Shown: positions 35,698-61,010 of the stretch, piece by piece
Numbering within the stretch: the stretch's first letter is position 1
How the letters are laid out: every line of letters starts with the position of its first letter
Source: a virus
IMG/VR virus record: IMGVR_UViG_3300042261_002391
Location: 24,469 to 88,468 of that record
Length of the DNA: 64,000 nucleotides
Strand: one strand, 5' to 3'
Notes under the pieces: model-generated
The model's database searches: none
What the model was told of the DNA's origin: nothing
Seen by the model: the letters and a program-made list of their open reading frames with translations, nothing else
Position numbers and translations under genes: made by a program

Positions 35698-35707
35698 ATT
35701 ATTATCG

Positions 35708-35851: not shown

Positions 35852-35926
35852 AGCACGGAGTGGGATTTGAACCCACGACTTTACAGTTTTGCAGACTGTT
35901 GCCTTTGACCACTCGACCATCCGTGC
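35852..35926 (-). tRNA. tRNA-Cys(GCA), copy 2
   Basis: Nearly identical to 4653-4727. Confidence 0.95.
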
Positions 35927-35960
35927 ATTATTTTTACCCAACATGTCAATGAACTAAAAC

Positions 35961-35991
35961 AAAAAACCCGAAACTTTTGATTTCGGGTTTT
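35961..35991 (-). terminator. attenuator terminator of tRNA operon 1
   Basis: AAACCCGAAA-TCAAAAG-TTTCGGGTTT + U tract, between leader ORF and first tRNA; boxA-like GTTCATTGACAT follows at 35943-35954. Confidence 0.9.
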
Positions 35992-36010
35992 ACTTTATGC
36001 TTAATATTCT

Positions 36011-36145
36011 TTACGAACCTATCGCATCCTCTACACCCGAATCAATTACAATATTTCTGCCTGTAATGTTAGAACAGAATATACCATTTCCATTGCGACT
36101 TGATGTCCCAAAATTTGAACTTGATATGGTTGTAAAAGTATTCAT
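36011..36145 (-). CDS. attenuator leader peptide of tRNA operon 1: MNTFTTISSSNFGTSSRNGNGIFCSNITGRNIVIDSGVEDAIGS
   Basis: Translated by hand; residues 2-32 use only N,T,F,I,S,G,R,C. Confidence 0.88.
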   Translation of the reverse strand: MNTFTTISSSNFGTSSRNGNGIFCSNITGRNIVIDSGVEDAIGS

Positions 36146-36173
36146 CGTTTTTATTTTTAATTGTTAATATTAA

Positions 36174-36233
36174 TTCGTTTTCATCTAAATACGTTGCAAA
36201 GGTAAAAAAGGTTACACAATTTGCAAACATTTT
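36174..36233 (-). promoter_or_regulatory. composite promoter (housekeeping TTTG-N19-TACCTTTG + ECF TGTAACC-N16-CGTAT + late-like GTATTTA)
   Basis: Near-identical copy at 60951-61010. Confidence 0.8.
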
Positions 36234-36295
36234 TCAGGAAAAAATGAAAAAAAAATCATTAATTTTTATAAGTATTTAATTTTCAAACATATCCA

Positions 36296-39052
36296 TTATG
36301 TGGTTACATCAACAATTTTTATTGTATTATCACTACCATCAATATATTTTAGCTTAATTGTACCTGTAGATGTTTTAATAATTTCCTTAGAATAGTCGGC
36401 AAAGATATGTGTTGCACTTGAAAAATCAATTCCGACAAAATTAATATTACCAAATATCATATTTTGTTGAAATGTCACTCCCGATATTGGTATATTAAAA
36501 TATGAAACCAAATGACCGAAAGTATTTAAATTACTACCACTTGATAATGTGATATCTATACAACTATCTCCAAATATATTATTAAAACAATTATCATTCA
36601 AATGGATGCTATTGCAAGCAACTCCAAATATGTTTGAATCACACGTAATGCTCAAAAAATTACCATTACAATGATTGCCAAATACATTATTAGTGCAATT
36701 CTCACCAATATTGTTATACATACATTTATTACCTAAAATAATTGAGTTACAATGACTGCCAAAATTGTTTTCCACACAATTAAAACCTAAAACTGTTGAG
36801 GTAACTCCTGATGAAAATACATTTGATATATTAGCAGCACCTAAAGTACAATTATTTAACCCAAATCCCGATGTATTTATTTGACAATCATCGCCAAAAG
36901 TGTTTGAGGTACACTCATCGCCAAAAGTGTTTGTGGAATTATTTGAATCAAAACGATTAAAGCCACAAGTATTGCCAAAAGTGTTCGCATAACAGTTATA
37001 GCCAAAAATGTTCCCATAACAAGTATTGCCAAAAATATTTTCATTACAACCATCACCAAAAATATTTGAATGACAACTATTACCAAAAGTATTTGAACCA
37101 CAATTATCACTAAAAATATTTGAATAACAACTATTGCCAAAAAAATTCACTGAGCAACTATTGTTAAAAGTATTTGAATAACAGCTATCGCCAAAAGTGT
37201 TTCCATAACAAGTATTGCCAAAAATATTTAAATAACAACCTACGCCAAAAGTGTTTCCATAACAAGTATTGCCAAAAATATTTAAATAACAACCTACGCC
37301 TAAAGTGTTTGAGCTACAATTATTGCCAAAAATATTTTCACTACAACCATCAGCTAAAATATTTCCACTACAGTTAATGCCAAATCTGTTATTATAAGAG
37401 CCACCGCTTAAAGTGTTTAACCTACAAATATCACTAAAAATGTTTTCATTACAACCATTAGCTAAATTATTGGTATTACAGTTATCACCCAAAATATTTG
37501 AATAAGAACCACTAAATACATTATCATAACAACCATAACCCAAAGTATTGTTATAACATATATTATTAAAAATATTATTATAAGAATAACTTCCAAATTT
37601 ATTGTAATAACAATTATATGTTAAAGTATTATTATTACAATTATCAGCAAAAGTATTGTTAGCACACACACTATATAACGTGTTTGAATAACATCCATCA
37701 CCAAAAGTATTATTTACAGAATTATTACCTAAAAAATTTGACTGGCAACCACCATTAAAAATATTTGAAGAGCAATTATTTCCAAACGTGCATAAACTAA
37801 AATTTTTTCCTAAAATATTAAAATTACATGACTTACCAAAAACATTTGACTGACAATAATCACCAAAAACATTCGAGGCAAATTCCCTTCCAATAATATT
37901 ATTATCACACCCATTACCAAAAGTATTTGAGTCACAGTTTATACCAAATATATTACGAGTACAATTATTACCAAAAGTGTTTGATGTAAATAAATCGGAA
38001 ATAGTATTTAGCTGAAAATCAGCCCCATATTTATTATTAGTAATTGAAGAGAATTGGCTATCAATATTACTATTAGATAAATAAAATACGTTATTTTGTA
38101 ATATCGATGGGATGTACCCTGTTTGGCTATTTACGCCATTAATTATTGAATCGAAAATATTATTCTTAACTAATAATTCATATGTATTATACTCATCAAA
38201 ACCTTGAAACGTTAAACAGTCAATATAGTTCGAATAACCATCAGAATAAGACATATAGCTCCAATATTGTGTTATATTGTAGTCAACAATTTTTGCCCAA
38301 GATGTATCATCTGTGACATCATTTAAATTATCATCAATTACACTAAGATAAACACCACCTGTAGAACCTGTTACTTGTACATAAGTATTTACGCTGTATG
38401 CAGTCCCACCACTCCACTGAGGATATCCATTAGTATCTTCAGTAAACAAATATCTTCTGAATTTAACATTTCTAAAGTCATACCCTAAGCTATTATTGTT
38501 TTTTACGTCATGTCTTTTATATATAACACCCTTAAAATCAGGTATTAATGTAACATTAGTTAAATCAGGATTTAAAGCTGTGCCACCAGCATTTTCAGCA
38601 GTCGCAAAACCATAATCTAGCATCCAATTGTTTGGATTCCAGTCGTAATAAATTATATCTTGTGGATATTGTTGTGAATATGCTTGTGGATAGAATTCGC
38701 TAATTGTACTTGCTTTAATAATTAGCGGTTCTAAGTTCCCAACATTAATATCATCAAGTCTATCGTAACCATCAAACATATAATGAACAGTTCTATAATC
38801 ATTTATTCTATAGAAAGTATTGGGTGTTAATCCGGAGGTAGTTGTTAAACCAGTTAATTGATTATAAGTTAAATTAATCACACCTGCAGTATTACCACTG
38901 ATTTCAACAAAATATCCTTCACCATTGAGATAGGTGTCTGGGTCTTGTGATAGTGTAGTATTTATTGGTGATGATGATACATAAACATCGCCAGTTCTAA
39001 GATAATTTCTATAATCGGAAACTGAAAGTTTATCTAGTTCTTGTGTTGCCAT
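36296..39052 (-). CDS. large beta-helix repeat protein (9-aa NxFGxxCxx repeats), probable virion fibre/spike
   Basis: Dozens of 9-aa repeats; exact 54-bp tandem duplication near 37189-37300; late-type promoter. Confidence 0.75.
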   Translation of the reverse strand: MATQELDKLSVSDYRNYLRTGDVYVSSSPINTTLSQDPDTYLNGEGYFVEISGNTAGVINLTYNQLTGLTTTSGLTPNTFYRINDYRTVHYMFDGYDRLDDINVGNLEPLIIKASTISEFYPQAYSQQYPQDIIYYDWNPNNWMLDYGFATAENAGGTALNPDLTNVTLIPDFKGVIYKRHDVKNNNSLGYDFRNVKFRRYLFTEDTNGYPQWSGGTAYSVNTYVQVTGSTGGVYLSVIDDNLNDVTDDTSWAKIVDYNITQYWSYMSYSDGYSNYIDCLTFQGFDEYNTYELLVKNNIFDSIINGVNSQTGYIPSILQNNVFYLSNSNIDSQFSSITNNKYGADFQLNTISDLFTSNTFGNNCTRNIFGINCDSNTFGNGCDNNIIGREFASNVFGDYCQSNVFGKSCNFNILGKNFSLCTFGNNCSSNIFNGGCQSNFLGNNSVNNTFGDGCYSNTLYSVCANNTFADNCNNNTLTYNCYYNKFGSYSYNNIFNNICYNNTLGYGCYDNVFSGSYSNILGDNCNTNNLANGCNENIFSDICRLNTLSGGSYNNRFGINCSGNILADGCSENIFGNNCSSNTLGVGCYLNIFGNTCYGNTFGVGCYLNIFGNTCYGNTFGDSCYSNTFNNSCSVNFFGNSCYSNIFSDNCGSNTFGNSCHSNIFGDGCNENIFGNTCYGNIFGYNCYANTFGNTCGFNRFDSNNSTNTFGDECTSNTFGDDCQINTSGFGLNNCTLGAANISNVFSSGVTSTVLGFNCVENNFGSHCNSIILGNKCMYNNIGENCTNNVFGNHCNGNFLSITCDSNIFGVACNSIHLNDNCFNNIFGDSCIDITLSSGSNLNTFGHLVSYFNIPISGVTFQQNMIFGNINFVGIDFSSATHIFADYSKEIIKTSTGTIKLKYIDGSDNTIKIVDVTT

Positions 39053-39175
39053 ATTAATTTCTAGTTTAATATAAATACAAAATATTAACTAAATAACTAT
39101 AATATTATATACAAATCAAGAACATAAAAAAAAGGCTGTCCATTTGGACAGCCTTTAATATTATAGAATTATGAA

Positions 39176-41449
39176 TTAAATCTTTTCTTCTTTTTCGCAC
39201 ATGTCGAAAGTGAAATCAACAGATTGTCCGTCAAGAGTGAGTGTTAATTTATTTTCGTCAAAACTCTTGAACTCGGTGAACCATTTTTTCGATAAGATAA
39301 GAGCAAATTTAATTTCAGCAATTTCTTGCATAATTTTTCTCTTTTGCTTATTCAAAATGTTCGATTTTGTTTCGAGATATGTTTTTAACACACCCTTTTG
39401 CTGTTCTTCAGATAATGTTTTGTAAATATCAGATTCGGTCTGTGCAACGTATTTATTAATCGCATCAGCCATAACCAATTCATTAATCTTCAAAGGAGCA
39501 CCGGATTTAATTTTAGCTACAACATCTTCGACTTTAGGAAGTGATGATAATCCTTTAATCTTCGTAGCAAGATTTACTGACATGTAGAAGTCGGTTGATT
39601 CAGCAGAAGTTACTTTTGGTGCGAAACCATTGAAATCTGTGATACCAATTTCTTTTAACCAATCAGCACATTCCTGACCAAGTAATTCGACGAACGATTG
39701 ACTTGTTTTTGGGTAAAGTGATTTCCGATAATAATCGTAAACCTTTTTATCACCTTGCAATTTAACGAGTTTCCATTCTAATTTGGCAAGTTCAACAGCA
39801 CTAATTGATTTAATCATACCTTTATTAACAATTGGTAATGATTTCAAATCAATTACAATAATGTTTGGTGCAGATGTTACATGAGATTCTTTAGTGTAAA
39901 ATGCCACAACCGAATACTTAACATTGTTTTTGTCCAAAATGTCAATCAATTCACTAGAATACGATACCGGGATTTTGTCAACATTTACAATACCGTCTTT
40001 TACCAAAGTGAACGTATTGTATTTGAATGTAGCTACCTTATCAATGCCGTACTTATTTTTAGGTAAAATTCCTTCACCTTCAATGTAAATACGAACACTC
40101 AAATTAGCACGTTCTTCGTTCCAAACTAAGTCAGTTAATGGATAACCTCTTTCAGGATTACTGTTAACAAATTTAATGTCAACTTTCTTTTCTTCTAATT
40201 CTTTCAAGATTGCTGATGCTTCATCAACACTTTTAGCTTCGGCAAGTCTTTGTTTATCGGCATCTGTTAAAGTACTACCAACAGCAACTTTTTTCCGTCC
40301 AATACGATTGTACTGGAAATCTTCATGATTAGGATAGAACAAACAACCTTCAAGGCTACCCAAATCACCGATAAGATTCATCAAGCAATAAGCATTGTCC
40401 GGAACTGGAACAATAGTTTCACGACTTCCGTTAGGGAAACGTTTAGAAACGTCGGTGATACAATCCTTAATTGCAGATTTGAATGAATTCAGTTTTTGTT
40501 TACCAAAAGCATTTGCAAGCATTTTGTAATAGTAATTATCACCCAATGCATAGAAGATTTTTTCGGCTTCATCATTCAATAATTTGTCAGCCAAAACATA
40601 GATACCCGCATACAATGAAGTATCAGTAAGTTGTTCAGAATCACCGACAGCATTTGGTGAGAAGAAGTATACTTCTTCAACATCAGCACCGACCATAATC
40701 TTACTGTCAACAATATTATACAACAATACGCTGCCGTTTGAAACGCTAAATGCAAAGTCATACAAATACTTGTCAGTAATCTCAACCAACGTTTTCTTTC
40801 CACTACGGAATGTTGATGAGATTTTTGCATTGAACACTGGTTCGAAATCATCAAACCCATCACAACTTACTTTCTCACCACCGAGAATCGATGCCATTTC
40901 AGTAATCCTGCGTGAATCAGCATAATAACCATATTCAACAAAAGTTGAAGCGGTAATGTCATTTTCAAGTGATTTTAATGCTTTAGTTACATCACCCCAA
41001 GGACAGTCATTGTTGTAACCATCAGTAAGGAAAATCATTGAAAATACGCTGTCTGGTCTGTTTTTCTTAATTCGTTGAACTAATTCACCAACCAATTCAA
41101 GTGGTTTTAAGAATGCTGTTAACCCAACAGGACGAAGCCATTTGTCGATTGCATCATTTAAATCACTAAGTGTTTTTAATGATTTTACTTCAACCTCTTC
41201 TTTCAAAATACCAGCATCCCTACTGCCCGAAAACCAAACAATAGAAATAGTATCGCCATCTTTCATGATGTTCGATAGTTTGTTCTTAAGCTGTGTTCTG
41301 ATGTGTTGAAGTTCGTAAGACATTGACCCTGATACGTCAACTACGAAGATGTGATTAGTTTTTTTTGGAAGTTCCACAACTACTTCATTATTTACTTTTT
41401 GCGAAACAAGGAAATAGTTTTCATCAATTTTTACATTTTGTTTTCTCAT
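39176..41449 (-). CDS. vWA domain protein
   Basis: MIDAS DVSGS, GLT, FLTDG; ECF promoter at 41504-41533. Confidence 0.85.
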   Translation of the reverse strand: MRKQNVKIDENYFLVSQKVNNEVVVELPKKTNHIFVVDVSGSMSYELQHIRTQLKNKLSNIMKDGDTISIVWFSGSRDAGILKEEVEVKSLKTLSDLNDAIDKWLRPVGLTAFLKPLELVGELVQRIKKNRPDSVFSMIFLTDGYNNDCPWGDVTKALKSLENDITASTFVEYGYYADSRRITEMASILGGEKVSCDGFDDFEPVFNAKISSTFRSGKKTLVEITDKYLYDFAFSVSNGSVLLYNIVDSKIMVGADVEEVYFFSPNAVGDSEQLTDTSLYAGIYVLADKLLNDEAEKIFYALGDNYYYKMLANAFGKQKLNSFKSAIKDCITDVSKRFPNGSRETIVPVPDNAYCLMNLIGDLGSLEGCLFYPNHEDFQYNRIGRKKVAVGSTLTDADKQRLAEAKSVDEASAILKELEEKKVDIKFVNSNPERGYPLTDLVWNEERANLSVRIYIEGEGILPKNKYGIDKVATFKYNTFTLVKDGIVNVDKIPVSYSSELIDILDKNNVKYSVVAFYTKESHVTSAPNIIVIDLKSLPIVNKGMIKSISAVELAKLEWKLVKLQGDKKVYDYYRKSLYPKTSQSFVELLGQECADWLKEIGITDFNGFAPKVTSAESTDFYMSVNLATKIKGLSSLPKVEDVVAKIKSGAPLKINELVMADAINKYVAQTESDIYKTLSEEQQKGVLKTYLETKSNILNKQKRKIMQEIAEIKFALILSKKWFTEFKSFDENKLTLTLDGQSVDFTFDMCEKEEKI

Positions 41450-41675
41450 ACAATGAAATTTTATTACAGTTATTTATTATTTTCAGTTTTTATTATTTAC
41501 AGTCTTATACGTTACAGTTTTTAAAATGTTACATATTTGCATCAAAAACTTACTTTATTAAGACACAAATATAATACAATATAATTAAATTACAATATAG
41601 TTTTTTACTAAATACTATAAAATAAATAAAAATCTCCTAAATTATATCAATTCAGGAGATTTTTATTTAAAATGT

Positions 41676-43265: not shown

Positions 43266-43382
43266 TTCATTTGTTTTTTATTAATACGATATATTCATTT
43301 TTATATACCATATCTAATTATTATTTATTTGAATCAATTAATTACTAATTAATTCACGACAAACATATAAACTTAATTTCAT

Positions 43383-44429
43383 TTACACAAGTATTTTTAA
43401 AAATTCGTCATAATTTTCATCTAAAATTAAAACATACACATATCCACACGCCTCAACAGATTTTCTTTTTGCATTAATTTTATCCCATCCACCTTGTCGT
43501 TTTAACCAATATGCTGATTTAATTTCAATGATATTATTATTATACTTAAAATCAGGTAAATGCCATTTTCCATATTGACTATCTAAATATTTGAATGTTG
43601 GCGAATTATTAATATCATCAATAATACTAATATTCTCACAATATTCAAGGAAACGAAACTCATGTAATGATTGATAATATAATTTAGTGTTTTTATATTG
43701 TTTAATCATATGATTAGTAATTGGGTTCTCATTGTATTTACACATATTTTGTGATGCTAATTCTTTAAATTCATCAGTTTTTGAATAATGAGTCACACCA
43801 TAATTTTTTAATATCGAATCTTTTTGTTTTTCTTTAACATATGTTAACGATTGGGGATATTTAACACCATACTTATTTAAATTATTAGTGATTCTTTTAT
43901 TAACTAAAGCCTTAGACTGCATACAATACTCAACGTCATAATTATTTTTCAATGTGTTTTTTGATTTTTCCTTTACTTCTTCTAATTGAAAAACATTTTC
44001 TACTTGGTATTTGCTAATAACAGTATCTTTTACTTTCGATTGATTCCAATGTGATGGCTCTGCAATCTCAGAACATTTATGTGAACAGTATTTTCTAGGC
44101 TTTCCTCGATAAAATTCCACATCATTATCACAATTAGGATTCTGACATTTCGGGTGACTATGTTTTTCAACATAATTTAATTCTTGCCACTCATATTTAT
44201 TGTGTCCAATTGCATATTTTGAAAATTTGCCCCTATTAAAATTCGGTCGTTCATCACAATATCCGCATTGACATTTAGGCTCGATTTCATTTAAAACAGT
44301 TAGCACATAATAATCAGCAGTTGACATATTATGTACGTCACGTATATGATTAGTTAAATCACCGCCTAAATTGTTTTTAAATTCCTTTCCACAAATTTCA
44401 CATTTAATCATAAAAAAATCCTCCAGCAT
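43383..44429 (-). mobile_element. free-standing PD-(D/E)xK homing endonuclease next to nrdJ
   Basis: C2H2 finger, KYGV repeats, HLPDF...IEIKS. Confidence 0.75.
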
Positions 44430-44478
44430 TTAATATAAATAGTGGAGGATGATTGAAAAGTATATGATGTGGGAATTC

Positions 44479-48780: not shown

Positions 48781-48836
48781 AATTTGAACTAATTTTAATA
48801 TAAATACTATTAAAATTAAAATTAGTTCAAATTTAG

Positions 48837-48910
48837 TACTCCCGATGGGACTTGAACCCATAGTCTCGCACTTTAAAAGAGTGGGGTTTTACCAATTAAA
48901 CTACGGAAGT
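48837..48910 (-). tRNA. tRNA-Lys(TTT)
   Basis: Loop CTTTTAA. Confidence 0.9.
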
Positions 48911-48946
48911 ATCTTATTATAATAACTGTTATATTTTAACAGTTTG

Positions 48947-49028
48947 TAGGAATGGTAGGATTCGAACCTACTAGACCGAAGTACTTGATTTACAGTCAAG
49001 CCTAACCCTCCAACGTTAGCGCATTCCC
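48947..49028 (-). tRNA. tRNA-Tyr(GTA)
   Basis: CTTGA-CTGTAAA-TCAAG, variable arm, A73. Confidence 0.92.
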
Positions 49029-49038
49029 ATTTATATTG

Positions 49039-49130
49039 TGGAACATGTAGGATTCGAACCTACTTACTGCGACCAATACGACTATTTAGCGATGCAGGTT
49101 GGATTTACAGTCCAGTGCCGTTAATGTTCC
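49039..49130 (-). tRNA. tRNA-Tyr(GTA) with rearranged D-arm
   Basis: Perfect acceptor and T arms; only 8 nt between acceptor and anticodon stems; GTCGT-ATTGGT in the variable region. Confidence 0.8.
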
Positions 49131-49141
49131 AAATTTCCGTG

Positions 49142-49213
49142 TACTCCCGGTGGGAATCGAACCCACAACCCACTGATTAAGAGTCAGTTACTCTACCTTT
49201 AAGCTACAAGAGC
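49142..49213 (-). tRNA. tRNA-Lys(CTT)
   Basis: ACTGA-CTCTTAA-TCAGT. Confidence 0.93.
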
Positions 49214-49227
49214 AAATATATAAAAAC

Positions 49228-49255
49228 AAAAAACCCGAATCTTTCGAATCGGGTT
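49228..49255 (-). terminator. attenuator terminator of Lys/Tyr tRNA operon
   Basis: AACCCGATTC-GAAA-GATTCGGGTT + U tract. Confidence 0.9.
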
Positions 49256-49286
49256 CTTTTAATTTCTGGCTTTGCAAAATCATTGC

Positions 49287-49382
49287 TTATTTTTTGCGTC
49301 CTGCAGAACAAAACATTCCCGATTCCATAAGAGATTTCTTATAAGATTTATAACCGTAATATTTTTTTGCAGTAGCTTTCAT
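49287..49382 (-). CDS. attenuator leader peptide: MKATAKKYYGYKSYKKSLMESGMFCSAGRKK
   Basis: Translated by hand; 10 of residues 2-16 are K or Y. Confidence 0.88.
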   Translation of the reverse strand: MKATAKKYYGYKSYKKSLMESGMFCSAGRKK

Positions 49383-49417
49383 TTCTTTATTTTTTAATTG
49401 TTCAACTTTTAATAGTG

Positions 49418-49459
49418 CAAATATACGCATAAATACGAAATAAACAAGAAAAGGTTACA
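49418..49459 (-). promoter_or_regulatory. composite promoter (ECF + late-like + TTG-N19-TATATTTG)
   Basis: TGTAACCTTTTCTTGTTTATTTCGTATTTATGCGTATATTTG. Confidence 0.75.
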
Positions 49460-49511
49460 AAAAATAGCAACATTTTTCAAAGTTTTTTCTAAATTATTGA
49501 TTTTCAATATT

Positions 49512-50321
49512 TTATTCAACTAATCTAATTGTCCAATAGTCGGCAGATAACCCTGATTGTTCGACATATCCGTAAGGCAAATAGAAATATCCATTAATTC
49601 CCCATTTTTCACCCCAACTATTACGAACAATTAATGCTTGTTTATTATCGTCATAACCAACAGCAAGTACGGCATGTCCACCCATTGATTGTTCTCCGGG
49701 TTTAGGCATTGATGCAATTCCTGTACGAGCAACTTCATCACTCATAAACGATTCATATATTGTAAACCCAAATGCTACGGGATATCCATCAGATAAGCAA
49801 TGTTTTACTTCATATAACGTATGTGGACTAATTCTTAAATATTCCAGTACTTGATTATCTAACGCAACACGATAACAATCATTATTCGGTTTTGTTTTAA
49901 ATTTCCAAATATCATATTTCCACATTGATTCTGAACAAACACCGTCTTTGACCATTGTTTTAATACCATCACGAATCATCGCACCAGCATCTTCATTAAT
50001 AGTTCCCTCCAATGCTCTTTCATTATAATAAATGAACAATCTTGAAGGAATAAAATCTTGTTTCTTTTGTTTAATTTGTTCAAATTGAAATGCAGCACCT
50101 AAAGCATTTGCAGTACAACTACCTAATTCGCCTTGATTATAGACTGGTGGACAATATTGTCTTAAATCTACTATTGATGGTAGTTCATGAGGAGCAGTAA
50201 TTTTAAATTTACGGTCACGTGGGTCTACATTATCTTTTACCCAACCAAATTTAAATGTTTGTTTTTCGGGTTTACCGAAAATTTTCTTGAAGAATTTTTT
50301 AATTAATGTTAATAGTTTCAT
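49512..50321 (-). CDS. papain-family (C1A) cysteine peptidase
   Basis: QGELGSCTANA, GGHAVLAVGY, RNSWG. Confidence 0.95.
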   Translation of the reverse strand: MKLLTLIKKFFKKIFGKPEKQTFKFGWVKDNVDPRDRKFKITAPHELPSIVDLRQYCPPVYNQGELGSCTANALGAAFQFEQIKQKKQDFIPSRLFIYYNERALEGTINEDAGAMIRDGIKTMVKDGVCSESMWKYDIWKFKTKPNNDCYRVALDNQVLEYLRISPHTLYEVKHCLSDGYPVAFGFTIYESFMSDEVARTGIASMPKPGEQSMGGHAVLAVGYDDNKQALIVRNSWGEKWGINGYFYLPYGYVEQSGLSADYWTIRLVE

Positions 50322-50384
50322 AGTATTTCGTTTTCATATAAATACTATGAAAAATGGCTACATTGTTAAATGCAGCCATTTTAT

Positions 50385-51515
50385 TTATCCTACTTCATAA
50401 CCATCCTTAAACGGTTTTGAATATGTTGGTCTGATTTTCTTCCATATAATTTCATCATATGGTCTTTTATCAAACATTTTAAATAAGATGCTGCAATATT
50501 CAGTTTTAAGTGCTTCTGCTGCAAATTCTTTACGTGTTTTAATATCATTGATATGATAAATACGAATGAATTCTTTCAACGATAGTCTTTCAATTGAGTT
50601 ATATTCGTTTTCCAACGAAGCAACTGTTTTTTTCAACCAATCATAAAATTCGTCAGGTACTCGGTCAAGTAACGAATCAAAATCATAATTATTCATCAAA
50701 TGTTCCCATACCGTAATATTTGAAACATTCGTTAAAATACCATGTAATCTGATATATTCACTAAATTTTACTTTAACACGAAAACCGTCAGAAAACCTAA
50801 CAACAAAACCTTCACGATTTTCTTCTTCAAGTGCCTTCAAATCATTAAGATTCTTTATGTTTTTTAATTCATATTTCTTAACAACAGTAAAATACTTAGA
50901 ATACATCGCAATCAATTTATCGTATGGTAATTCTTCCCCGGTTGAAGTTATAATGTTACCTAGTAACACTAATTCCCTTCTATCACCATAATCGACAACA
51001 ATACGATTTTCTTTATATAAAATTTCGAACAAATATGTGCAATTACGATTCAATGCATCAAAAGTATTATTTTCAATCATTTTACGTGCTTCAATAACTT
51101 GCTCGGAAATAAATGAACCACGACTAGCAACAATCCATTGCATTATTTCTTCATAAAAGAAAACTATAATCAATGACCCATCCATTTTTTCAAAAATTTC
51201 AAATTCTTTAGACATATCAATTTCTGATGGGTCGTGTTCTTCAAAATTCTTGAATTTCATGAATGGTCTAGCAAGAATATTACCATTGCCATCAACAACC
51301 ATTCCACGACAAGATAATGTGTATACATCCCAAAATCTTTTAGATTGTACTTTAGGTGAATAATTCAAAATCCAAATATCATATTCTGGATGCTTATTGG
51401 CAACAATTAATCCATTGTCAATATATTCCCGCAATAATGCCCAATCAACTTCTTCCAACATTTCCATTCTATGTCCCCCTCTTTTTAGGATATGAGTATA
51501 ACTTGTTTCTTTCAA
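50385..51515 (-). CDS. T4 Rnl1-family RNA ligase
   Basis: EKMDGSL, SRGSF, FE, EGFVV, RVKVK (true start probably the internal MEMLEE). Confidence 0.9.
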   Translation of the reverse strand: MKETSYTHILKRGGHRMEMLEEVDWALLREYIDNGLIVANKHPEYDIWILNYSPKVQSKRFWDVYTLSCRGMVVDGNGNILARPFMKFKNFEEHDPSEIDMSKEFEIFEKMDGSLIIVFFYEEIMQWIVASRGSFISEQVIEARKMIENNTFDALNRNCTYLFEILYKENRIVVDYGDRRELVLLGNIITSTGEELPYDKLIAMYSKYFTVVKKYELKNIKNLNDLKALEEENREGFVVRFSDGFRVKVKFSEYIRLHGILTNVSNITVWEHLMNNYDFDSLLDRVPDEFYDWLKKTVASLENEYNSIERLSLKEFIRIYHINDIKTRKEFAAEALKTEYCSILFKMFDKRPYDEIIWKKIRPTYSKPFKDGYEVG

Positions 51516-52332
51516 GAAATTCTCGTCTCAATTGTTTTGTTTCATATTTATTCTCGCCTAAAACATATACGTATTTATGCTTTTTACCGATTTCCCGGGA
51601 TTCGCACGATAACATATAATCTTTAGATAATTTTTTTATCCTTTTAGCAATATCTTCAGGCATTTGGTCAAACTTTACACTATCACCTTTCTGCCAATCA
51701 AGTTGCCAAATAATTCCATCATTTTTTGCAACTTTTCTATATACTGAACGTGCTCTAAAATATCTGTCTGATACCCATCTACCTGATTCAATTCTATATT
51801 GTTTGCTTGCACCAGATTTCTTACCAATATAATAAAAATTACATGCTTGATAAAGAGTACCTAATTCATTTGCCTCCACATCAGAATATGCGACAAATAC
51901 TCTAAATCTGGTGTTTTTAACCATCCAATTAATAGCGTACATTATTAATGAACTTCCCAAATTTTTGGGTGACCAACTAATGCATGCACCTCTGCTAATT
52001 AATCTTTCAATCTTTTTGGTCTTTTCTCCAACTAATTTCGAAAAAACACTAGGCATATCCATTATCACAACACCTGCTAATATACCATTATATCTTGCAG
52101 TAAAAATGTGCGTTGGATATAAACTCATTCTGCCAAGCCATTCATGTCGTTCGATAAATTCTTTTACTTCATCGTAACACGCATCCTTTTCTTCGAATTG
52201 TATTGTAAAATCAGAAACTCTTAAATCCTTAACATCGTCTTCAGATAAATTTGCTCTTTTTAAATCTTCATCCCGGTTAGCAACCCTTATTTCATATTGC
52301 CAACAATTTTCAGTGTTTGTTTTTATTCCCAT
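51469..52332 (-). CDS. Mom-like GNAT DNA-modification protein
   Basis: ISRGACISWSPKNLGS...VAYSD...GTLYQACNF. Confidence 0.75.
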   Translation of the reverse strand: MGIKTNTENCWQYEIRVANRDEDLKRANLSEDDVKDLRVSDFTIQFEEKDACYDEVKEFIERHEWLGRMSLYPTHIFTARYNGILAGVVIMDMPSVFSKLVGEKTKKIERLISRGACISWSPKNLGSSLIMYAINWMVKNTRFRVFVAYSDVEANELGTLYQACNFYYIGKKSGASKQYRIESGRWVSDRYFRARSVYRKVAKNDGIIWQLDWQKGDSVKFDQMPEDIAKRIKKLSKDYMLSCESREIGKKHKYVYVLGENKYETKQLRREFLERNKLYSYPKKRGT

Positions 52333-52835: not shown

Positions 52836-52909
52836 TACTATAATCCATTCTAATCAGCAAAGGTAAAACTATTTTAAAAACAATCAAGTATTTATAGAAA
52901 AAAATAGTA

Positions 52910-54176: not shown

Positions 54177-54221
54177 TAATTATATTACACACACAAAACG
54201 ATTATTTTTAATTAATATCAT

Positions 54222-54416
54222 ATGAAAAATCTATTAGAAAAATTGAAAAACTGGTTTAAGAAAAACTGGTTTATTGTAGTAAACTACTTAGTGATTTTTA
54301 TCGCTTATTCAAATGTTTACGAAAAGGAAGGTACTGTACTTGCAGAAGTACTTTTAGGTCTTTGGTTATTTGCTTCCGCAGCATACGGAATTTATAAACT
54401 AACAATTAGAAAATAA
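54222..54416 (+). CDS. small two-TM membrane protein
   Basis: 64 aa, hydrophobic. Confidence 0.65.
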   Translation: MKNLLEKLKNWFKKNWFIVVNYLVIFIAYSNVYEKEGTVLAEVLLGLWLFASAAYGIYKLTIRK

Positions 54417-54449
54417 AAACAAAACCCATCAATTACGATGGGTTTTGTT

Positions 54450-54740
54450 TTAAAATATTAATTCAGTGTAAATATCACTACACCACCTACCTTGAGTTTT
54501 GACGATTTTAATGGGTTTTTTCATCCATTGTTTTGGATTTTTCGATACTAATTTCCAATTAGGATATTTAATATTGTTATCACACGCATAACCGCCATAA
54601 CATTTACCTTCATAATTTTCATTGTCATGATATTTGCAATACGAACATCTAATTTTGCCACTTCTTTCAAGAGTGTGTTTATATGCACGATTAAATTCAT
54701 AACGATTTGTAGTTGTTTCACTAATAATTTTTGCCTTCAT
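54450..54740 (-). CDS. small basic protein (CSYCKYH...NWK...KQW)
   Basis: 96-aa ORF preceded by leader ORF and hairpin. Confidence 0.75.
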   Translation of the reverse strand: MKAKIISETTTNRYEFNRAYKHTLERSGKIRCSYCKYHDNENYEGKCYGGYACDNNIKYPNWKLVSKNPKQWMKKPIKIVKTQGRWCSDIYTELIF

Positions 54741-54757
54741 AATTTTCTAAGTTTAAC

Positions 54758-54790
54758 TTAGAAAACAGATGCCCTTTCTTTAATTTTCAT
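54758..54790 (-). CDS. putative leader peptide MKIKERASVF
   Basis: Its stop lies in an 11-bp inverted repeat (54743-54765) abutting the next ATG. Confidence 0.5.
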   Translation of the reverse strand: MKIKERASVF

Positions 54791-54942
54791 AGTAAAATTT
54801 TTTATATAAATAGTTGATAGTTATTTCAAATTTCTTTTCTTAACCGTTTTTTTTATAATCGGCTTTGTTCTGCGTGGGTCATTAACTTTCAATGGCTTTC
54901 CACAATTACAATCATCTTGTTTATTAGTATTACTCATCACAC

Positions 54943-56863
54943 TTATACTTGTAATAACAATCTCTTATCTTCCCTATTGTAGATTTTAGCAATAGTACCT
55001 TGACCATGAATAATTTGAATGAAATATCCTTTAAATGGATATATCGAATTCATAAATTCTGAATTTAATTCAGGTACGGATATTGGTTGAAATGTATCTG
55101 TAACATATTCAATTATGAAAGATAATTTATTATTGGGGTATGGTTCACATCCGTTAGAATAACATTTTTCACGATATTCGTCATCATGTTCAAAAATTAA
55201 TCGGTAGATTAATGTATCAAAATCATTTTGACTCAACCATTCTTCAAAACGATGATATCTATCTCTTTTAATCATTCCACGTTGTCTTTCTTTCCCAATG
55301 AAAGCTTCGCCTTCTTCAGATTCAAACCAATTATGTAATTTTTCTAAATCAAGTGCCATAATCAATCAAATAAAACATTCCACTTTTCTTTAAACAACTC
55401 AGAATATTCATTAGCATCAACGAAGTTTACTTGCAATACTCCAACGCCTGTCATTACACCAACAAACAACAAGTTAGGGTCAGAAATACCTTCACACGCA
55501 TATGAATCAAATATTCTAATCTGACAATAATCATCATTAATTAACACCTTAACCAAGTGTTTATCGTCACGTTTTTCAACATATTTTGCAGGAAACATCC
55601 ATATTTTTTGAATGTCTATTTCTGCGGTTCTTTCCTGAAACTCCATTTGTCAAATCCGAATTGAGCTATTTTATACTTATCTTCAATATTTAGTGTATCC
55701 TTTTCAGGATTACCTAAAACTCCGCTAATATACATCTGAATTTCCTGAAAAGCAAGAAAACTGTCGAAAACTTTATAGAATTCGTAATCAGCTAGAATCG
55801 GGTTGATTATCAATTCTGAGTCATTACTCAAGCGAATAGTATTGTGACCCAAACTATAATACCCTTCGTTATAGCAAGAGTCATACACGAAAATTGGCGA
55901 CTTAAATTTCCGGAAATAAGATGTAACATCATAGTTGATAATTTCGTTATAGATGTCAACCATATTTCCATTAAAGCTTCTTTCGGTATTAACTAATGGC
56001 TTAATTTCTTCAAAATCGTATGTAATGGTAGTCTTAACACCATTATTACCAACCAATTCGTATAATTTAAAACCAACATAGATTTTACCACAAAATCCAA
56101 TAATAAAGTATGAATAGTTATGATACTTCTGTGGGTTTATTTTCTTCATAAAGAAATTACCCAATCTTAAAAATGGGCTTATGTCTTTATGTTTACCATA
56201 ATAGTCAGCACGTCTAAAAGCGTCGAACATTTCATTTTTTTTCAGTTTAATCTCAGTTCGCTCATAAACAATGGTTTTATCAATGCCAAGTGTTCCGGCA
56301 ACGCCATCGTAATAATCTTTTTTCTTCGATAAAATTAACATGAGTTTTATTTATTGAGGTTTAACACTAAATAATGCTTGTTTCATTAATTAAAAGTCTT
56401 TAAATTGTGGGTATTTTTTTAGTAAAATTTTATCAAAATGTATAAATGATTCACGCTCATTATCATCTCCAATCTCATATTCAATATTAATGTATTCATT
56501 AAACCATGAATATTCGCCGTTAAAATGCAGCACATTATACTTTTTGTATAAGATATTTAAATATCTTTGGTATTGATTATCGTTATATACGTAATATCTT
56601 ACACTATAAAGGGTATTGTCAACAAACAACAATACAACATCCTTTTTAAAAGAATATTCATCTAATCTTACAATCGTAACATTATCAGGATAATCAGTAG
56701 TGTTCGCATCATTAATATCGACACCTTTTTTTATTAGTGATTCTTTACTATCATATCCCAAAATAAAATATTTTAGAACTGTTTTGGAATTAGCACCAAC
56801 CTGAGAGAACACAGTCGTTGAAAACAACAACACAATCAAAGCCAATATAAATTTTTTCATCAT
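54943..56863 (-). CDS. four hypothetical proteins (54943-55365, 55362-55646, 55616-56341, 56390-56863 with signal peptide)
   Basis: Co-oriented ORFs downstream of ECF promoter at 56875-56905. Confidence 0.7.
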
Positions 56864-56908
56864 TATTTTTTTTACTTATACGTAAAGGCTCTAAAAAATG
56901 TTACAATT

Positions 56909-57607
56909 CTAACAAAATTTTATCCATTTTCGTATGGTATTGTCACTCACGCCATATTTCTTTCCAGTTGCAGCATATCCAATCTCATTAACACTATTCA
57001 ATAAAACATCTAGGTCTGGTCTGTCTACTTTACGTAAGCTCTTATGGTGACATTTTTGACACATAACGCTATTATTACTTATTGTTGCACCACACGAACA
57101 AAGCTTGTTTTTTTGTTTAGGTTTTTTTTCTCTAAATTTTAACAGCTTATTGTTTTTTCCTGCAAATGTATCTGATTGAGAATGACAGTTGGGACATAAA
57201 AATTCTAAATTTTCAATTCTGTTGTCATTATTAATACCATTTTTGTGTTCTAATTGTAATGATAATTTTTTACCTTCCCAACATCCAGTATTTCCGCATT
57301 TACATTTATACTCCAACAACCCTTTATTAATTAAACGTTTTTTTAGAGTAGCTCTATTCGTATAGGTTGAATTTTCAACGAGAATATCTTCTATTGGAAT
57401 TATTTCTTTAATTGATGTATGGTCACCATAATAATGATATTTAGGTATTACAATTCCTCTTTTAATTAGTTGTGATTTAATTGAGGCATATCCACCACTA
57501 CCGTTGCTACTATACCCAAAATTAATTAATACTTCCCTTAGTGACTTACTTTTTGCCAATACAGCAATAATCTCAGCATTACTATATTTTTCAATCTTAC
57601 TATTCAT
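56909..57607 (-). mobile_element. HNH homing endonuclease with C-terminal HTH
   Basis: LQLEHKNG...NLEFLCPNCH; GKKYGVSDNTIRKW; follows tRNA-Trp. Confidence 0.9.
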
Positions 57608-57673
57608 AACAATATTTTTTATATAAATAGTATTTCGAACAGCAAAAGTATTATTACATCAAAACTAATTTTG

Positions 57674-57745
57674 CACGCTTGGAAGTAATCGAAACCTCAT
57701 CTTCGGGGTTGGAAGCCGACATCTTAGCCATTAGACGACAAGCGT
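57674..57745 (-). tRNA. tRNA-Trp(CCA)
   Basis: Loop TTCCAAC, G73. Confidence 0.88.
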
Positions 57746-57766
57746 ATATTTATTTTTTCCCACTAA

Positions 57767-58279
57767 TTAAAATATTGATGCCCCTATTGTATATACAATT
57801 GCACTAAATGCAACTAATTCAATCCACCATGTTTTATTCTTTTTTAGTAATAACCCAATCAAAATCATTAAAGACGCTGATATCGCATTAACATGCCACA
57901 TATTATAACCAAATAGAATTGCTAATTGACTAAATCCAACACCTGCGATAGCTGCTGCAGCGTGTATTTTATATATCCAACTATCATTTATTTGAGCTGC
58001 TGCACCAACAAAACAAATACCAGCACCAGCAAAAAATATTAATGGTGTCACATCTATCCCGGCAATTATTGCTGGTATCGCAAAACCCCAACAAAATAAT
58101 GTAAATAGAAAGTTATATTGTTTAGGTAATGCATAGTAACTAGCACTGATTGAACTTTGTACACCGTATTTAATCCAAATAAACGATACATATGATACGA
58201 ACACAAGTACCATTATAATAAACGAAACTAATTGAAATCCCATATAATCATTTTTTTTCATAAATACGAAGAATATCAA
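57767..58279 (-). CDS. multi-pass membrane protein (SISASYY motif)
   Basis: Several TM segments; start likely at MGFQL. Confidence 0.75.
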   Translation of the reverse strand: MIFFVFMKKNDYMGFQLVSFIIMVLVFVSYVSFIWIKYGVQSSISASYYALPKQYNFLFTLFCWGFAIPAIIAGIDVTPLIFFAGAGICFVGAAAQINDSWIYKIHAAAAIAGVGFSQLAILFGYNMWHVNAISASLMILIGLLLKKNKTWWIELVAFSAIVYTIGASIF

Positions 58280-58282
58280 ATT

Positions 58283-58376
58283 AAAGTCGATAAACTACAT
58301 TCGGTTCAAGGCACTCTATAGTCCCGACTAATTTACCATAGATGCAGTAGTTCTTAACTCGTCTAACATCGACTTT
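58283..58376 (-). ncRNA. unidentified rod-like structured RNA in tRNA operon 2
   Basis: Nested stems AAAGTCGAT/ATCGACTTT, AACTAC/GTAGTT, TCTATGGT/ACTATAGA. Confidence 0.45.
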
Positions 58377-58377
58377 G

Positions 58378-58450
58378 TGGAGCTATCGGAGTACGATTCC
58401 GAAACATGACATTGCAAGTGTCATATGATAGCCAGTTTCACCATAACCCC
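58378..58450 (-). tRNA. tRNA-Ala(TGC), atypical T-loop ATCGTAC
   Basis: G3:U70, loop CTTGCAA. Confidence 0.88.
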
Positions 58451-58461
58451 AAATTTAATCG

Positions 58462-58532
58462 TTGCGATAACGGGAATCGAACCCGTATTGTCTCCTTATG
58501 AGAGAGGTATCCTACCGTTAGAAGATATCGCA
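58462..58532 (-). tRNA. tRNA-Met(CAT) (or lysidine Ile2)
   Basis: Loop CTCATAA. Confidence 0.85.
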
Positions 58533-58540
58533 ATATTGTG

Positions 58541-58614
58541 TGGAGTCGAAGGGACTCGAACCCTCAACATCCTGCGTGCAAGGCAGGTGCTCTAGCCAAT
58601 TGAGCTACGACCCC
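58541..58614 (-). tRNA. tRNA-Ala(TGC)
   Basis: Canonical, G3:U70. Confidence 0.95.
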
Positions 58615-58625
58615 AAGTTAATTTG

Positions 58626-58698
58626 TACACCCGGTCGGATTCGAACCGACACTTTATACGTTCTAAGCGTATTGACTCTACCGTTGGTCTACGAGTGC
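58626..58698 (-). tRNA. tRNA-Leu(TAG), short variable loop
   Basis: ATACG-CTTAGAA-CGTAT. Confidence 0.9.
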
Positions 58699-58704
58699 AT
58701 TTTG

Positions 58705-58777
58705 TAGCTACGGTCGGATTCGAACCGACACTTAACTGTGTTTGAAACAGACGACTCTGCCGTTGGTCTACGTAGCC
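58705..58777 (-). tRNA. tRNA-Leu(CAA), short variable loop
   Basis: Loop TTCAAAC. Confidence 0.88.
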
Positions 58778-58789
58778 ATTTAATTTTTG

Positions 58790-58862
58790 TAGCTGCAATC
58801 GGATTCGAACCGATACTTTATACGTTCTTAGCGTATTGACTCTGCCGTTGGTCTACGCAGCC
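58790..58862 (-). tRNA. tRNA-Leu(AAG), short variable loop
   Basis: ATACG-CTAAGAA-CGTAT. Confidence 0.88.
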
Positions 58863-58871
58863 AAATAGTTG

Positions 58872-58959
58872 TAGCTCAGATGGGACTCGAACCCACACGC
58901 CCCTCACGGAGCAGCAGATTTTAAGTCTGCTATGTACTACCAAATTTCATCACTGAGCC
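58872..58959 (-). tRNA. tRNA-Leu(TAA)
   Basis: Class II cloverleaf. Confidence 0.95.
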
Positions 58960-58964
58960 ATTCC

Positions 58965-59216
58965 TTAATTAATCTTAACAAGAGTATTGGAATTAAGTGC
59001 TTTCCTAATATATCTCATCAATGTTATTCCACGATATTCAGCAAAAAATGTTGATGTTCCAACATCTGCTTTATCGTTCATATCAACTTCAAATTGATAA
59101 ATATCTTCACCCACATACAAATTGTAATACAATACACCTGCAATAGCATGACTGAATTTTGCTGTTGTATCTTTTACTGCTTCTATAATTGTAATCATAA
59201 TTTCGAATTTTAGCAT
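58965..59216 (-). CDS. hypothetical phage protein
   Basis: Likely start MITIIE; ITLMRYIRKAL motif. Confidence 0.65.
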   Translation of the reverse strand: MLKFEIMITIIEAVKDTTAKFSHAIAGVLYYNLYVGEDIYQFEVDMNDKADVGTSTFFAEYRGITLMRYIRKALNSNTLVKIN

Positions 59217-59300
59217 GGGCGGGAGGATTCGAACCTAATGCTGCAGACAATCCATATTTCCCCTCGGGCGGGGAACGTCTTACCGTTAAACGACACCCAT
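59214..59300 (-). pseudogene. degenerate tRNA (loop CGCCCGA, long insert, broken T stem)
   Basis: Acceptor and D arm intact. Confidence 0.65.
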
Positions 59301-59365
59301 ATTTTTAATTTATCGGTAATATAACCTATAAACGTTATTTATCGGTAATATAACCTATAAATTTG

Positions 59366-59439
59366 TAGTCGTAGAGGGAATCGAACCCCCGATATTTTGC
59401 TTGTAAAGCAAACGCTCTAAACCACTAAGCCATACGACT
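59366..59439 (-). tRNA. tRNA-Val(TAC)
   Basis: Loop TTTACAA. Confidence 0.93.
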
Positions 59440-59446
59440 ATTTATG

Positions 59447-59520
59447 TGCTTCCAGTTGGATTCGAACCAACGACATTCACTTTGTAGGAGTGACATTCTT
59501 AACCACTGAAATATGGAAGC
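59447..59520 (-). tRNA. tRNA-Val(TAC), C33 variant
   Basis: TCACT-CCTACAA-AGTGA. Confidence 0.87.
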
Positions 59521-59619
59521 ATTTTTGTATGAAAATTCCGTCAATAACTCTCATTTTCGACGTTAGTGTTGGTTATTTCCGACAAAACAATATCTTTTGT
59601 TGATAATAAGCAACATCAG

Positions 59620-59709
59620 TACAGCGTAGGGGATTCGAACCCCTGATACCTCTATTAGAAGTATATCAGATTGAAAGTCTGACAACATAAGCCACTCGTT
59701 CAACGCTGC
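59620..59709 (-). tRNA. tRNA-Glu(TTC) with long variable arm
   Basis: TCAGA-CTTTCAA-TCTGA; extra arm ATACTTCT-AAT-AGAGGTAT. Confidence 0.85.
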
Positions 59710-59741
59710 ATCTTTCAGATTATATCGATTATAATCCATTG

Positions 59742-59813
59742 TACTCGGTACGGTACTCGAAACCGTATGGCAAGGTTGAAAACCTTGAATCCTAACCGTT
59801 AGATGAACCGAGC
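59742..59813 (-). tRNA. tRNA-Glu(TTC)
   Basis: CAAGG-TTTTCAA-CCTTG. Confidence 0.9.
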
Positions 59814-59838
59814 ATTTCTTTTGCTTATCATTTAAGCA

Positions 59839-60504
59839 TTAATATTTTTCATAATACTTTATCCACTTTCTTATGGCATTATCACTTACACCATATTTTC
59901 TACCTGTACCTAAATATCCTAGTTCTTTGATTTCATCAACTAATTGTTTATATTCAGGACGTTTAACTTTACGTTGATTGATTGATTTGTCCTTATTTAG
60001 AGTGCTTTTATTGACAAGATTTTTTATTTTCTTAATCCTTTCAACATTTTTTCCTCCATGTGTTGGGAGTGTTGCATTACAATTAGGACAAACAATTCTC
60101 AAATTTTCAATTCTATTATCATCATGCATTCCATTAATATGGTCAAGAATTAAACTCATATGCTTTCCATGCCAATTTTCATCCTGTCCACACAATTCAC
60201 ATTTACGTTCTTTTAATCCTTCTTTATATAGACGATTTTTTAAATTACACGTACTATGTGTTGAATTAAGAACTAATATATCTTCAATCGGTATTTTCAG
60301 CATAAAATTATATTTGTTGTCGTTAAAATTTGTCTGATTGATACGAATAAAATGATTCGTATCTAAATTAAATAACTTAATATATTTTTTTACTGTATTT
60401 CGATTTCCACATAAATTGTTACCATATAATTTTCTTGACACTTCTGATAACGATACTGATTCTTTTACGATTTTTTCAAATTCTAATTTATTCATAACTG
60501 TCAT
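59839..60504 (-). mobile_element. HNH homing endonuclease with C-terminal HTH (paralogue of 56909-57607)
   Basis: LDHING...NLRIVCPNCN; GRKYGVSDNAIRKW; follows tRNA-Asp. Confidence 0.9.
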
Positions 60505-60565
60505 TTATTATAAATACGAATCAGTTCGAAAAAACAGCGAAAAACCTCAATAAAATCAACATTGC

Positions 60566-60635
60566 CGAACGTGTGGGATTCGAACCCCTACTTCTGAGAG
60601 ACAGTCAGAGATGTTAGCCATTACACTACACGCCC
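60566..60635 (-). tRNA. tRNA-Asp(GTC), U37
   Basis: TCTGA-CTGTCTC-TCAGA. Confidence 0.83.
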
Positions 60636-60646
60636 GTTATTTTTTG

Positions 60647-60719
60647 CGGTACTGATGGGACTCGAACCCACGACCTGAGCATAGACAGTGCCCCATTCTC
60701 ACCACTGAACTACAGTACC
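60647..60719 (-). tRNA. tRNA-Asp(GTC), U37
   Basis: GGGCA-CTGTCTA-TGCTC, G73. Confidence 0.9.
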
Positions 60720-60758
60720 GTATTTTTCAACCCACAATTTCAATGAACTACATAAAAC

Positions 60759-60790
60759 AAAAAAACCCGGCTTAATCTTAAGTCGGGTTC
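60759..60790 (-). terminator. attenuator terminator of tRNA operon 2
   Basis: AACCCGACTTAA-GA-TTAAGCCGGGTT + U tract; boxA-like GTTCATTGAAA at 60738-60748. Confidence 0.9.
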
Positions 60791-60817
60791 TTTAAACAAT
60801 AACAATAGAAAGGAGGT

Positions 60818-60925
60818 TTATTGTTTCAAATTTTTGAACCCGACTTTGCATAACATATCCTCTGCATCTGCCCATAAGAGGTCAACTGCCACAACCACTG
60901 CTAATATGTTTAGTAAAGTCTTCAT
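60818..60925 (-). CDS. attenuator leader peptide: MKTLLNILAVVVAVDLLWADAEDMLCKVGFKNLKQ
   Basis: Translated by hand; residues 8-25 use only L,A,V,D,W,E,M. Confidence 0.88.
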   Translation of the reverse strand: MKTLLNILAVVVAVDLLWADAEDMLCKVGFKNLKQ

Positions 60926-60950
60926 TTTGTTATTTTTTAAATTTTTAACT

Positions 60951-61010
60951 ATTCGTTTCATCTAAATACGTTGCAAAGGTATAAAAGGTTACACAATTTG
61001 CAAACATTTT
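60951..61010 (-). promoter_or_regulatory. composite promoter, near-identical to 36174-36233
   Basis: TTTGCAAATTGTGTAACCTTTTATACCTTTGCAACGTATTTAGATGAAACGAAT. Confidence 0.8.

Follow-up and report, generated by a model that had tools for sequence, protein, structure and literature searches.

Probable leader-peptide attenuators upstream of tRNA gene clusters in a phage contig

Leader-peptide attenuators are known from enterobacteria, in which multivalent leaders precede ilvGMEDA (Leu, Val, and Ile) and thr (Thr and Ile), and trpL, hisL, pheL, and leuL are further examples; in the pheM-pheST attenuator of Escherichia coli, a leader peptide controls phenylalanyl-transfer RNA (tRNA) synthetase. The tRNA genes themselves are described in textbooks as being controlled at the promoter level by growth rate and guanosine tetraphosphate (ppGpp). 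Here, a 64,000-nucleotide stretch of DNA from a large freshwater phage (IMG/VR record IMGVR_UViG_3300042261_002391, positions 24,469 to 88,468; hereafter the window), which represents the final 64 kb of a virus contig 88.5 kb in length (G+C content, ~30%), was analysed for three units on its minus strand, each consisting of a promoter, a small open reading frame (ORF), and an intrinsic terminator placed before a cluster of tRNA genes. These units probably act as ribosome-mediated (leader-peptide) transcription attenuators, and the genes that they would regulate are those of tRNAs.

The units resemble the attenuators of amino-acid operons in having a promoter-proximal short ORF rich in regulatory codons and an antiterminator and an intrinsic terminator that exclude each other, and would resemble them further in a kinetic choice made by ribosome position and in the sensing of several amino acids per leader. 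Unlike those attenuators, they would regulate tRNAs and not biosynthetic enzymes, the sensed molecule being the product; a leader would sense up to eight amino acids, and four leaders, the fourth of which was found in relatives, partition all 20. In the phage leaders, neither a 1:2 pairing with clear overlap of the antiterminator nor similarity to Rfam leader families was found, and they are phage-borne in a Bacteroidota-type expression context. Because the first regulated genes are tRNAs and not genes for biosynthesis, transport, or synthetases, the units were filed as a variant of the leader-peptide attenuator. With pheM-pheST they share leader-peptide attenuation of a gene of the translation apparatus, read through the decoding of cognate codons, although that system controls the synthetase for one amino acid instead of tRNA genes and involves no partition of the code. 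In T-box riboswitches, a terminator/antiterminator decision is likewise set by the state of a specific tRNA and translation-related genes are controlled, but the T-box binds uncharged tRNA without a ribosome, whereas the phage leaders have an ORF that is conserved and lack a T-box motif. In the literature searched, attenuation of tRNA genes by leader peptides was not found described; the mechanism class is known, and the elements not described in that literature are the tRNA target (product feedback), the breadth of up to eight amino acids in one leader, and the division of the code into four parts.

In all three units of the window, the parts follow in the same order, namely Bacteroidota-type promoter (TTTG, then TAnnTTTG), A-rich leader, ATG-initiated ORF (44, 31, and 35 codons), intrinsic terminator, and first tRNA, which lies 15-40 nucleotides (nt) from the end of the unit; all coordinates of unit parts refer to the minus strand. 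In unit 1, a promoter of Bacteroidota type (TTTG ... TAccTTTG, 36194-36227) precedes leader ORF 1 (36011-36145, 44 codons), which contains a hairpin with a UUCUG..CAGAA core (36050-36085), possibly a pause hairpin, and, just downstream of it, the antiterminator 5′ strand (GAUUCGGGU, 36035-36043), complementary to the 5′ arm of the intrinsic terminator (35956-35991, -14 kcal/mol, with a U run); the first tRNA, for Cys, is located at 35926. Unit 2 begins with a variant of the same promoter (TAtaTTTG, ~49418-49451) and comprises leader ORF 2 (49287-49382, 31 codons, of which codons 2-16 are rich in Lys/Tyr), a hairpin (UAUAAG..CUUAU, 49326-49343) that abuts the antiterminator 5′ strand (GGAAUCGGGA, 49317-49326), the terminator (49222-49256, -16 kcal/mol), and a first tRNA for Lys at 49213. 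Unit 3 is composed of the promoter (60974-61004), leader ORF 3 (60818-60925, 35 codons) with a hairpin around Leu-Leu-Trp codons (60859-60881) and the antiterminator 5′ strand (AAAGUCGGGUUC, 60836-60847; duplex, -20 kcal/mol), a terminator with one A-C mismatch (60755-60793, -14.5 kcal/mol), and a first tRNA for Asp at 60719. An identical 41-nt promoter block is present in units 1 and 3 (36179-36219 = 60956-60996), and the terminator tail CGGGTTTTTTGTTTT occurs within the window at the three unit sites only. In-frame ATGs located farther upstream, for leader 2 (inside the promoter) and for leader 3, were rejected as starts, being not conserved in relatives. No strong terminator was found within the tRNA clusters, the next strong ones lying at 54419, 47222, and 23932, so each unit may additionally control several protein genes; internal promoters may be present inside the clusters.

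In the window, 39 tRNA genes were called by ARAGORN, almost all on the minus strand, and two further atypical tRNAs were found with the Rfam tRNA model. Cluster 1 (25972-35926, minus strand) contains tRNAs for Cys, Ile (three), Ser (four), Phe, Gly (two), Asn (two), Thr (two), and Arg (three, one atypical), together with one CAU tRNA and a CUA suppressor, with HNH and HTH ORFs interspersed. Codons 2-32 of leader 1 specify N, T, F, I, S, G, R, and C exclusively, the same eight amino acids as those of the cluster 1 tRNAs, and 37 of its 43 residues are cognate (P = 9e-9; here and below, P values for single leaders are binomial, comparing cognate residues per leader with the proteome of the contig itself). 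Cluster 3 (57673-60719, minus strand) contains tRNAs for Asp (two), Glu (two), Val (two), Leu (four), Ala (two), Met, and Trp, and codons 8-25 of leader 3 specify exclusively the same seven amino acids, L, A, V, D, W, E, and M (cognate residues 22/34, P = 3e-4). Cluster 2 (48836-49213, minus strand) consists of Lys(CUU), an atypical Tyr(GUA), Tyr(GUA), and Lys(UUU), in this order, and Lys and Tyr make up 12 of the 30 residues of the leader preceding it (P = 6e-4). Among all 2353 six-frame segments of the contig, the longest cognate-only runs are those of 31 residues in leader 1 and of 18 in leader 3, and the 3x4 table of leader by amino-acid set gave a chi-square of 55 (P = 4.5e-10). A preliminary description of this DNA had claimed the three minus-strand units of promoter, ORF, antiterminator, terminator, and tRNA, which direct reading bore out with correct coordinates, and had regarded all three leaders as built from the amino acids of their downstream tRNAs; the latter claim stands for leaders 1 and 3 with their cognate-only runs, while leader 2 is enriched in its cognate residues, not restricted to them.

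Relatives were retrieved from IMG/VR using as anchor the Rnl1-type RNA ligase gene (50385-51515, minus strand) located between clusters 3 and 2, by which 39 related loci were recovered, including complete genomes of 349, 328, and 322 kb; a neighbouring 918-aa protein used as an IMG/VR anchor yielded no relatives, and megablast with 5.7 kb around leader 1 gave no match among GenBank phages. In all of these relatives, the clusters are arranged as [Pro His Gln]-[Asp Glu Val Leu Ala Trp Met]-ligase-[Lys Tyr]-[Thr Cys Ile Ser Phe Gly Asn Arg ... suppressor]. In the window, cluster 4 is a remnant (61711-63132, minus strand) with tRNAs for His and Gln (two), its Pro tRNA and leader lying past the contig end, behind an HNH endonuclease insertion at that end; an exact-match scan of metagenome contigs for an extension towards the fourth leader of this contig returned nothing. 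If the reading as attenuators of tRNA genes is right, a leader of Pro-, His-, and Gln-rich composition should be present in relatives as a fourth one; this prediction, set beforehand, held: upstream of the Pro/His/Gln cluster, relatives carry a Gln/Pro/His-rich leader (cores such as IQPQPQQHPQ and IQQQPQQHPQ) with its own antiterminator (GAAUGGGG) and terminator (CCCCAUUC ... GUGGGG and a U run). The four tRNA sets {C I S F G N T R}, {K Y}, {D E V L A W M}, and {P H Q} partition all 20 amino acids.

Cognate fractions were pooled by class over unique leaders, with the proteome as background, and amounted to 0.85 for class 1 (background, 0.435), 0.34 for class 2 (0.146), 0.70 for class 3 (0.347), and 0.39 for class 4 (0.072). 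Composition alone placed 54 of 55 unique leaders (40 contigs) with the cluster that they precede, and the single misassigned leader stands before a doubtful tRNA call; the check proposed in the preliminary description, whether leader composition tracks cluster content in related genomes, came out in its favour. Within a class, the composition is retained though the order of residues differs.

The match extends to the level of decoding. Cognate enrichment is confined to the ORF frame; in class 1, for example, the value is 0.81 in this frame and 0.31 and 0.44 in the other two. In codon boxes split between two classes, AAY:AAR was 40:1 in class 1 and 7:115 in class 2, TTY:TTR was 25:7 in class 1 and 6:60 in class 3, TGY:TGG was 11:0 in class 1 and 9:14 in class 3, ATH:ATG was 55:2 in class 1 and 19:22 in class 3, and GGN accounted for 33/59 of GNN codons in class 1 and 1/151 in class 3; these counts pool related sequences, so their P values are inflated, and the direction is uniform. 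Judged from these counts, each half of a split codon box goes with the identity of the tRNA, a pattern that base composition or RNA structure would not yield. In a 24-sequence alignment of class 2, the ATG is invariant and indels in the control codons are multiples of three. A Shine-Dalgarno motif precedes only 2% of the long ORFs of the phage, the upstream regions being A-rich, and the leaders are alike in this respect. A 1-nt indel just 5′ of the antiterminator, seen in the window and in two relatives (L007 and L024), leaves the motif GAAUCGGGA out of its usual frame, so that a wholly different C-terminal peptide results and the RNA motif is kept; stop positions and tail peptides of the leaders vary freely. 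These features may be taken as signs that the leader ORFs are translated rather than working as peptides.

The same observations bear on an untranslated RNA switch, comparable to a T-box, to which tRNAs or a protein would bind directly, with codon-like triplets pairing with anticodons without a ribosome. T-box leaders do put an antiterminator/terminator choice under tRNA control, but an Rfam cmscan of the whole window gave tRNA matches only, with no T-box or leader family (Thr, Leu, Trp, His, Phe) at gathering score; moreover, ATG, frame, and stop are conserved with 3-nt indels, the enrichment is found in the ORF frame only, and up to 30 control codons for eight amino acids are unfit for a single specifier, which makes such a switch extremely improbable.

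At the RNA level, terminators of -11 to -21 kcal/mol were present in all 23 leaders first examined, and in the same 23 a segment in the distal ORF pairs with the 5′ arm of the terminator at -11 to -20 kcal/mol. In most units, the distance from the terminator and its U run to the first tRNA is 12-40 nt, and it reaches up to ~150 nt in some relatives. The antiterminator is the minimum-energy fold once the 3′ arm of the terminator is left out. Comparison of classes and genomes shows three-way co-variation of the antiterminator with the two arms of the terminator at five columns (G-C-G with A-U-A; C-G-C with G-C-G; U-A-U with G-C-G or A-U-A). Within class 2, the antiterminator helix is 99% paired but invariant. 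The pairing energies and the three-way co-variation bear out the earlier claim of a distal-ORF segment complementary to the 5′ arm of the terminator. In three divergent relatives (L036, L043, and L038), unrelated stems, e.g., GUAAGACUGG with CCGGUCUUA, are found in the same layout and with the same Lys/Tyr or class-1 composition. Each leader further contains an in-ORF hairpin upstream of the antiterminator, which it overlaps by only ~2 nt; in class 2, six sequences carry a double change from G-C to A-U in this hairpin, which was independently found by RNAalifold and may serve as a pause hairpin. When both strands of the complete 349-kb genome (G001) were scanned, 116 terminator-like hairpins were obtained, of which 19 have an upstream complement and seven of these also a small ORF; four of the seven candidate units lie 11-59 nt before the four tRNA clusters, each cluster having one.

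A different account would hold that the small ORFs encode functional micropeptides, that the hairpins are ordinary terminators insulating upstream genes, and that the match to the tRNA set is an inherited coincidence. The leader peptides are indeed conserved among relatives, and leader 3 resembles a hydrophobic signal or membrane peptide. This account is nevertheless highly unlikely, given that the antiterminator co-varies with the terminator, the RNA motif outlasts the shift of the tail frame, stops and tails are free to vary, composition is retained within a class under a changed residue order, and all four classes match their own cluster.

For the attenuators of tRNA genes, we infer translation of the leader ORF, kinetic competition, and the direction of the switch as follows. 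The transcript would begin at the strong host-type promoter, and a ribosome would start on the short ORF. If the control codons are decoded fast, the ribosome would cover or just pass the antiterminator strand in the distal ORF, and with this strand covered, the hairpin and U run would form and transcription would halt 15-40 nt short of the first tRNA. If a charged tRNA is scarce, a control codon would become slow and the ribosome would stall upstream of the antiterminator, which could then pair with the emerging 5′ arm of the terminator and allow RNA polymerase to enter the matching tRNA cluster. With read-through upon slow cognate decoding, each cluster would be under negative feedback from its own products, and the four channels in the phage family would together span all 20 amino acids. 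Attenuation applied to tRNA genes had been put forward in the preliminary description, and its sequence-testable parts (start contexts, 3-nt indels, frame-specific match, co-variation, and fourth leader) turned out as predicted.

Several points weigh against this reading. Whole-leader equilibrium folds favour the terminator in most modelled states, even with a stalled ribosome, so that the switch must be kinetic, as in trp, and a kinetic choice is assumed here, as is transcription-translation coupling in the host; since folding at equilibrium with modelled ribosome footprints failed to yield the switch, an earlier idea of units that stay on by default when untranslated was dropped. The class 2 stop codon is found 11-24 nt beyond the antiterminator, and for blocking, a ribosome would have to be placed between the two strands. 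Leader 2 is only ~40% Lys/Tyr, and several of its non-cognate residues are conserved, partly because they are located in the RNA hairpin. The complete genome of 349 kb has no Ala tRNAs in cluster 3, and its leader retains three Ala codons (an anecdotal case). The related leaders are homologous, and pooled P values therefore overstate independence. Tracking at the isoacceptor level is weak, with a pooled association (53/65 vs 26/47, P = 0.003) that is not phylogenetically independent, and a first impression that the ACG codon occurs only with Thr(CGU) failed in three genomes; synonymous codons used by the leaders (217 vs 185 expected) are suggestive only. The sequencing runs listed as containing the stretch were only freshwater, lake, and wastewater DNA metagenomes, with no RNA run among them.

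In an alternative reading, the units are real attenuators that report general translation capacity or amino-acid starvation instead of tRNA loss, so that all tRNA operons would open together upon any slowing of leader translation, class-specific composition adding little. The weak isoacceptor tracking agrees with such a general sensor, the near identity of the three promoters fits co-regulation, and stalling cannot separate a missing amino acid from a missing tRNA; yet a general sensor would not need four non-overlapping, cluster-matched sets and discrimination within split boxes, and we consider it unlikely.

As to purpose, the four leaders might constitute a codon-resolved tRNA homeostat doubling as a counter-defence, a proposal that we make tentatively and hold to be possible rather than probable. 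An anticodon nuclease or host shut-off would remove certain tRNAs, only the stalled channel would open, and the replacements would be made. The Lys/Tyr channel, lying beside the RNA ligase gene and genes for cyclic-phosphate processing, would be a repair-and-replace module; the gene for a cyclic-phosphate-processing receiver domain protein (cREC_REC, 61079-61495, minus strand) is located directly upstream of the unit 3 promoter. A T5 tRNA-Lys variant rescues infection from PARIS, which cleaves host tRNA-Lys (bioRxiv 10.1101/2024.01.02.573894), and the position of the Lys/Tyr operon beside the ligase gene, taken with this rescue, makes a repair-and-replace role plausible. As in T5, the tRNA complement is large, and here Lys is found in a small operon with Tyr beside the RNA ligase gene; the published T5/PARIS-type cases, however, concern the action of tRNAs and not their regulation, and no attenuator is described there. 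An anti-defence purpose, or a link to PrrC-type defence, is a guess based on the neighbouring RNA-repair genes, and the design would be accounted for equally well by homeostasis following host shut-off or by a codon-usage mismatch.

Further genes of the tRNA island include one for an R2K ATP-grasp protein (61789-62553), which forms an RNA-repair-type set with the ligase and cREC_REC, and the RNA ligase gene is flanked by genes for a papain-family (Peptidase_C1) protein (49512-50321) and a Mom-family protein (51469-52332). In several relatives, a phage transfer-messenger RNA (tmRNA) gene is located between cluster 3 and the RNA ligase gene (L005, 4785-5265; L008, 3131-3481; L011, 5341-5694); none was detected in this contig. 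Some relatives have 140-390 nt between the class-2 terminator and the first tRNA, with 2-4 copies of a motif like GTGAAAAAC(G/A)TTTATTACCC (L008, 12700-12850; L010, 12750-12890; L011, 13150-13300; L023, 7756-7830; L039, 2535-2610), a stretch absent from the window.

Among the tRNA genes, the CUA-anticodon (amber suppressor) tRNA (25972-26046, minus strand) stands at the far end of cluster 1 and in the same place in relatives. The atypical Arg(ACG) (29228-29303) and Tyr(GUA) (49039-49130) genes, both on the minus strand, have a D-arm site of only 4-5 nt and a long insert in the variable region, score 34-35 bits with Rfam, and were missed by ARAGORN; the Arg(ACG) tRNA would decode CGC, a rare codon retained in all class-1 leaders. 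HNH/homing-endonuclease ORFs lie among the tRNA genes (28098-28793, 29308-29898, 43383-44429, and 63137-64000), one of which parts tRNA-His from upstream sequence at the contig end, and such insertions have expanded cluster 1 to ~10 kb. A lone tRNA-Cys (4652-4727, minus strand) and a lone tRNA-Ile (14763-14837, plus strand) are located far from the clusters, with no leader-terminator unit upstream. In one relative (G006, locus L022), no His tRNA was seen in cluster 4 and the leader is one His codon short relative to the others, an anecdotal observation. A Leu codon in the Lys/Tyr leader of two relatives (L039 and L023) was considered as a match to a Leu tRNA and rejected, since the odd 89-nt tRNA concerned is called Leu or Cys by ARAGORN depending on the locus.

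If the units act as attenuators of tRNA genes, the leaders could be used as reporters, being small sensors of natural origin that respond to how fast particular codons are decoded, and if the counter-defence proposal is also true, the arms race over immune systems that cleave tRNAs would gain a layer that is inducible. Were decoding speed to feed back onto transcription of the tRNAs that perform the decoding, the translation apparatus would be subject to a control principle that is new, and the sorting of tRNA genes into fixed amino-acid groups in large phages would find an explanation.

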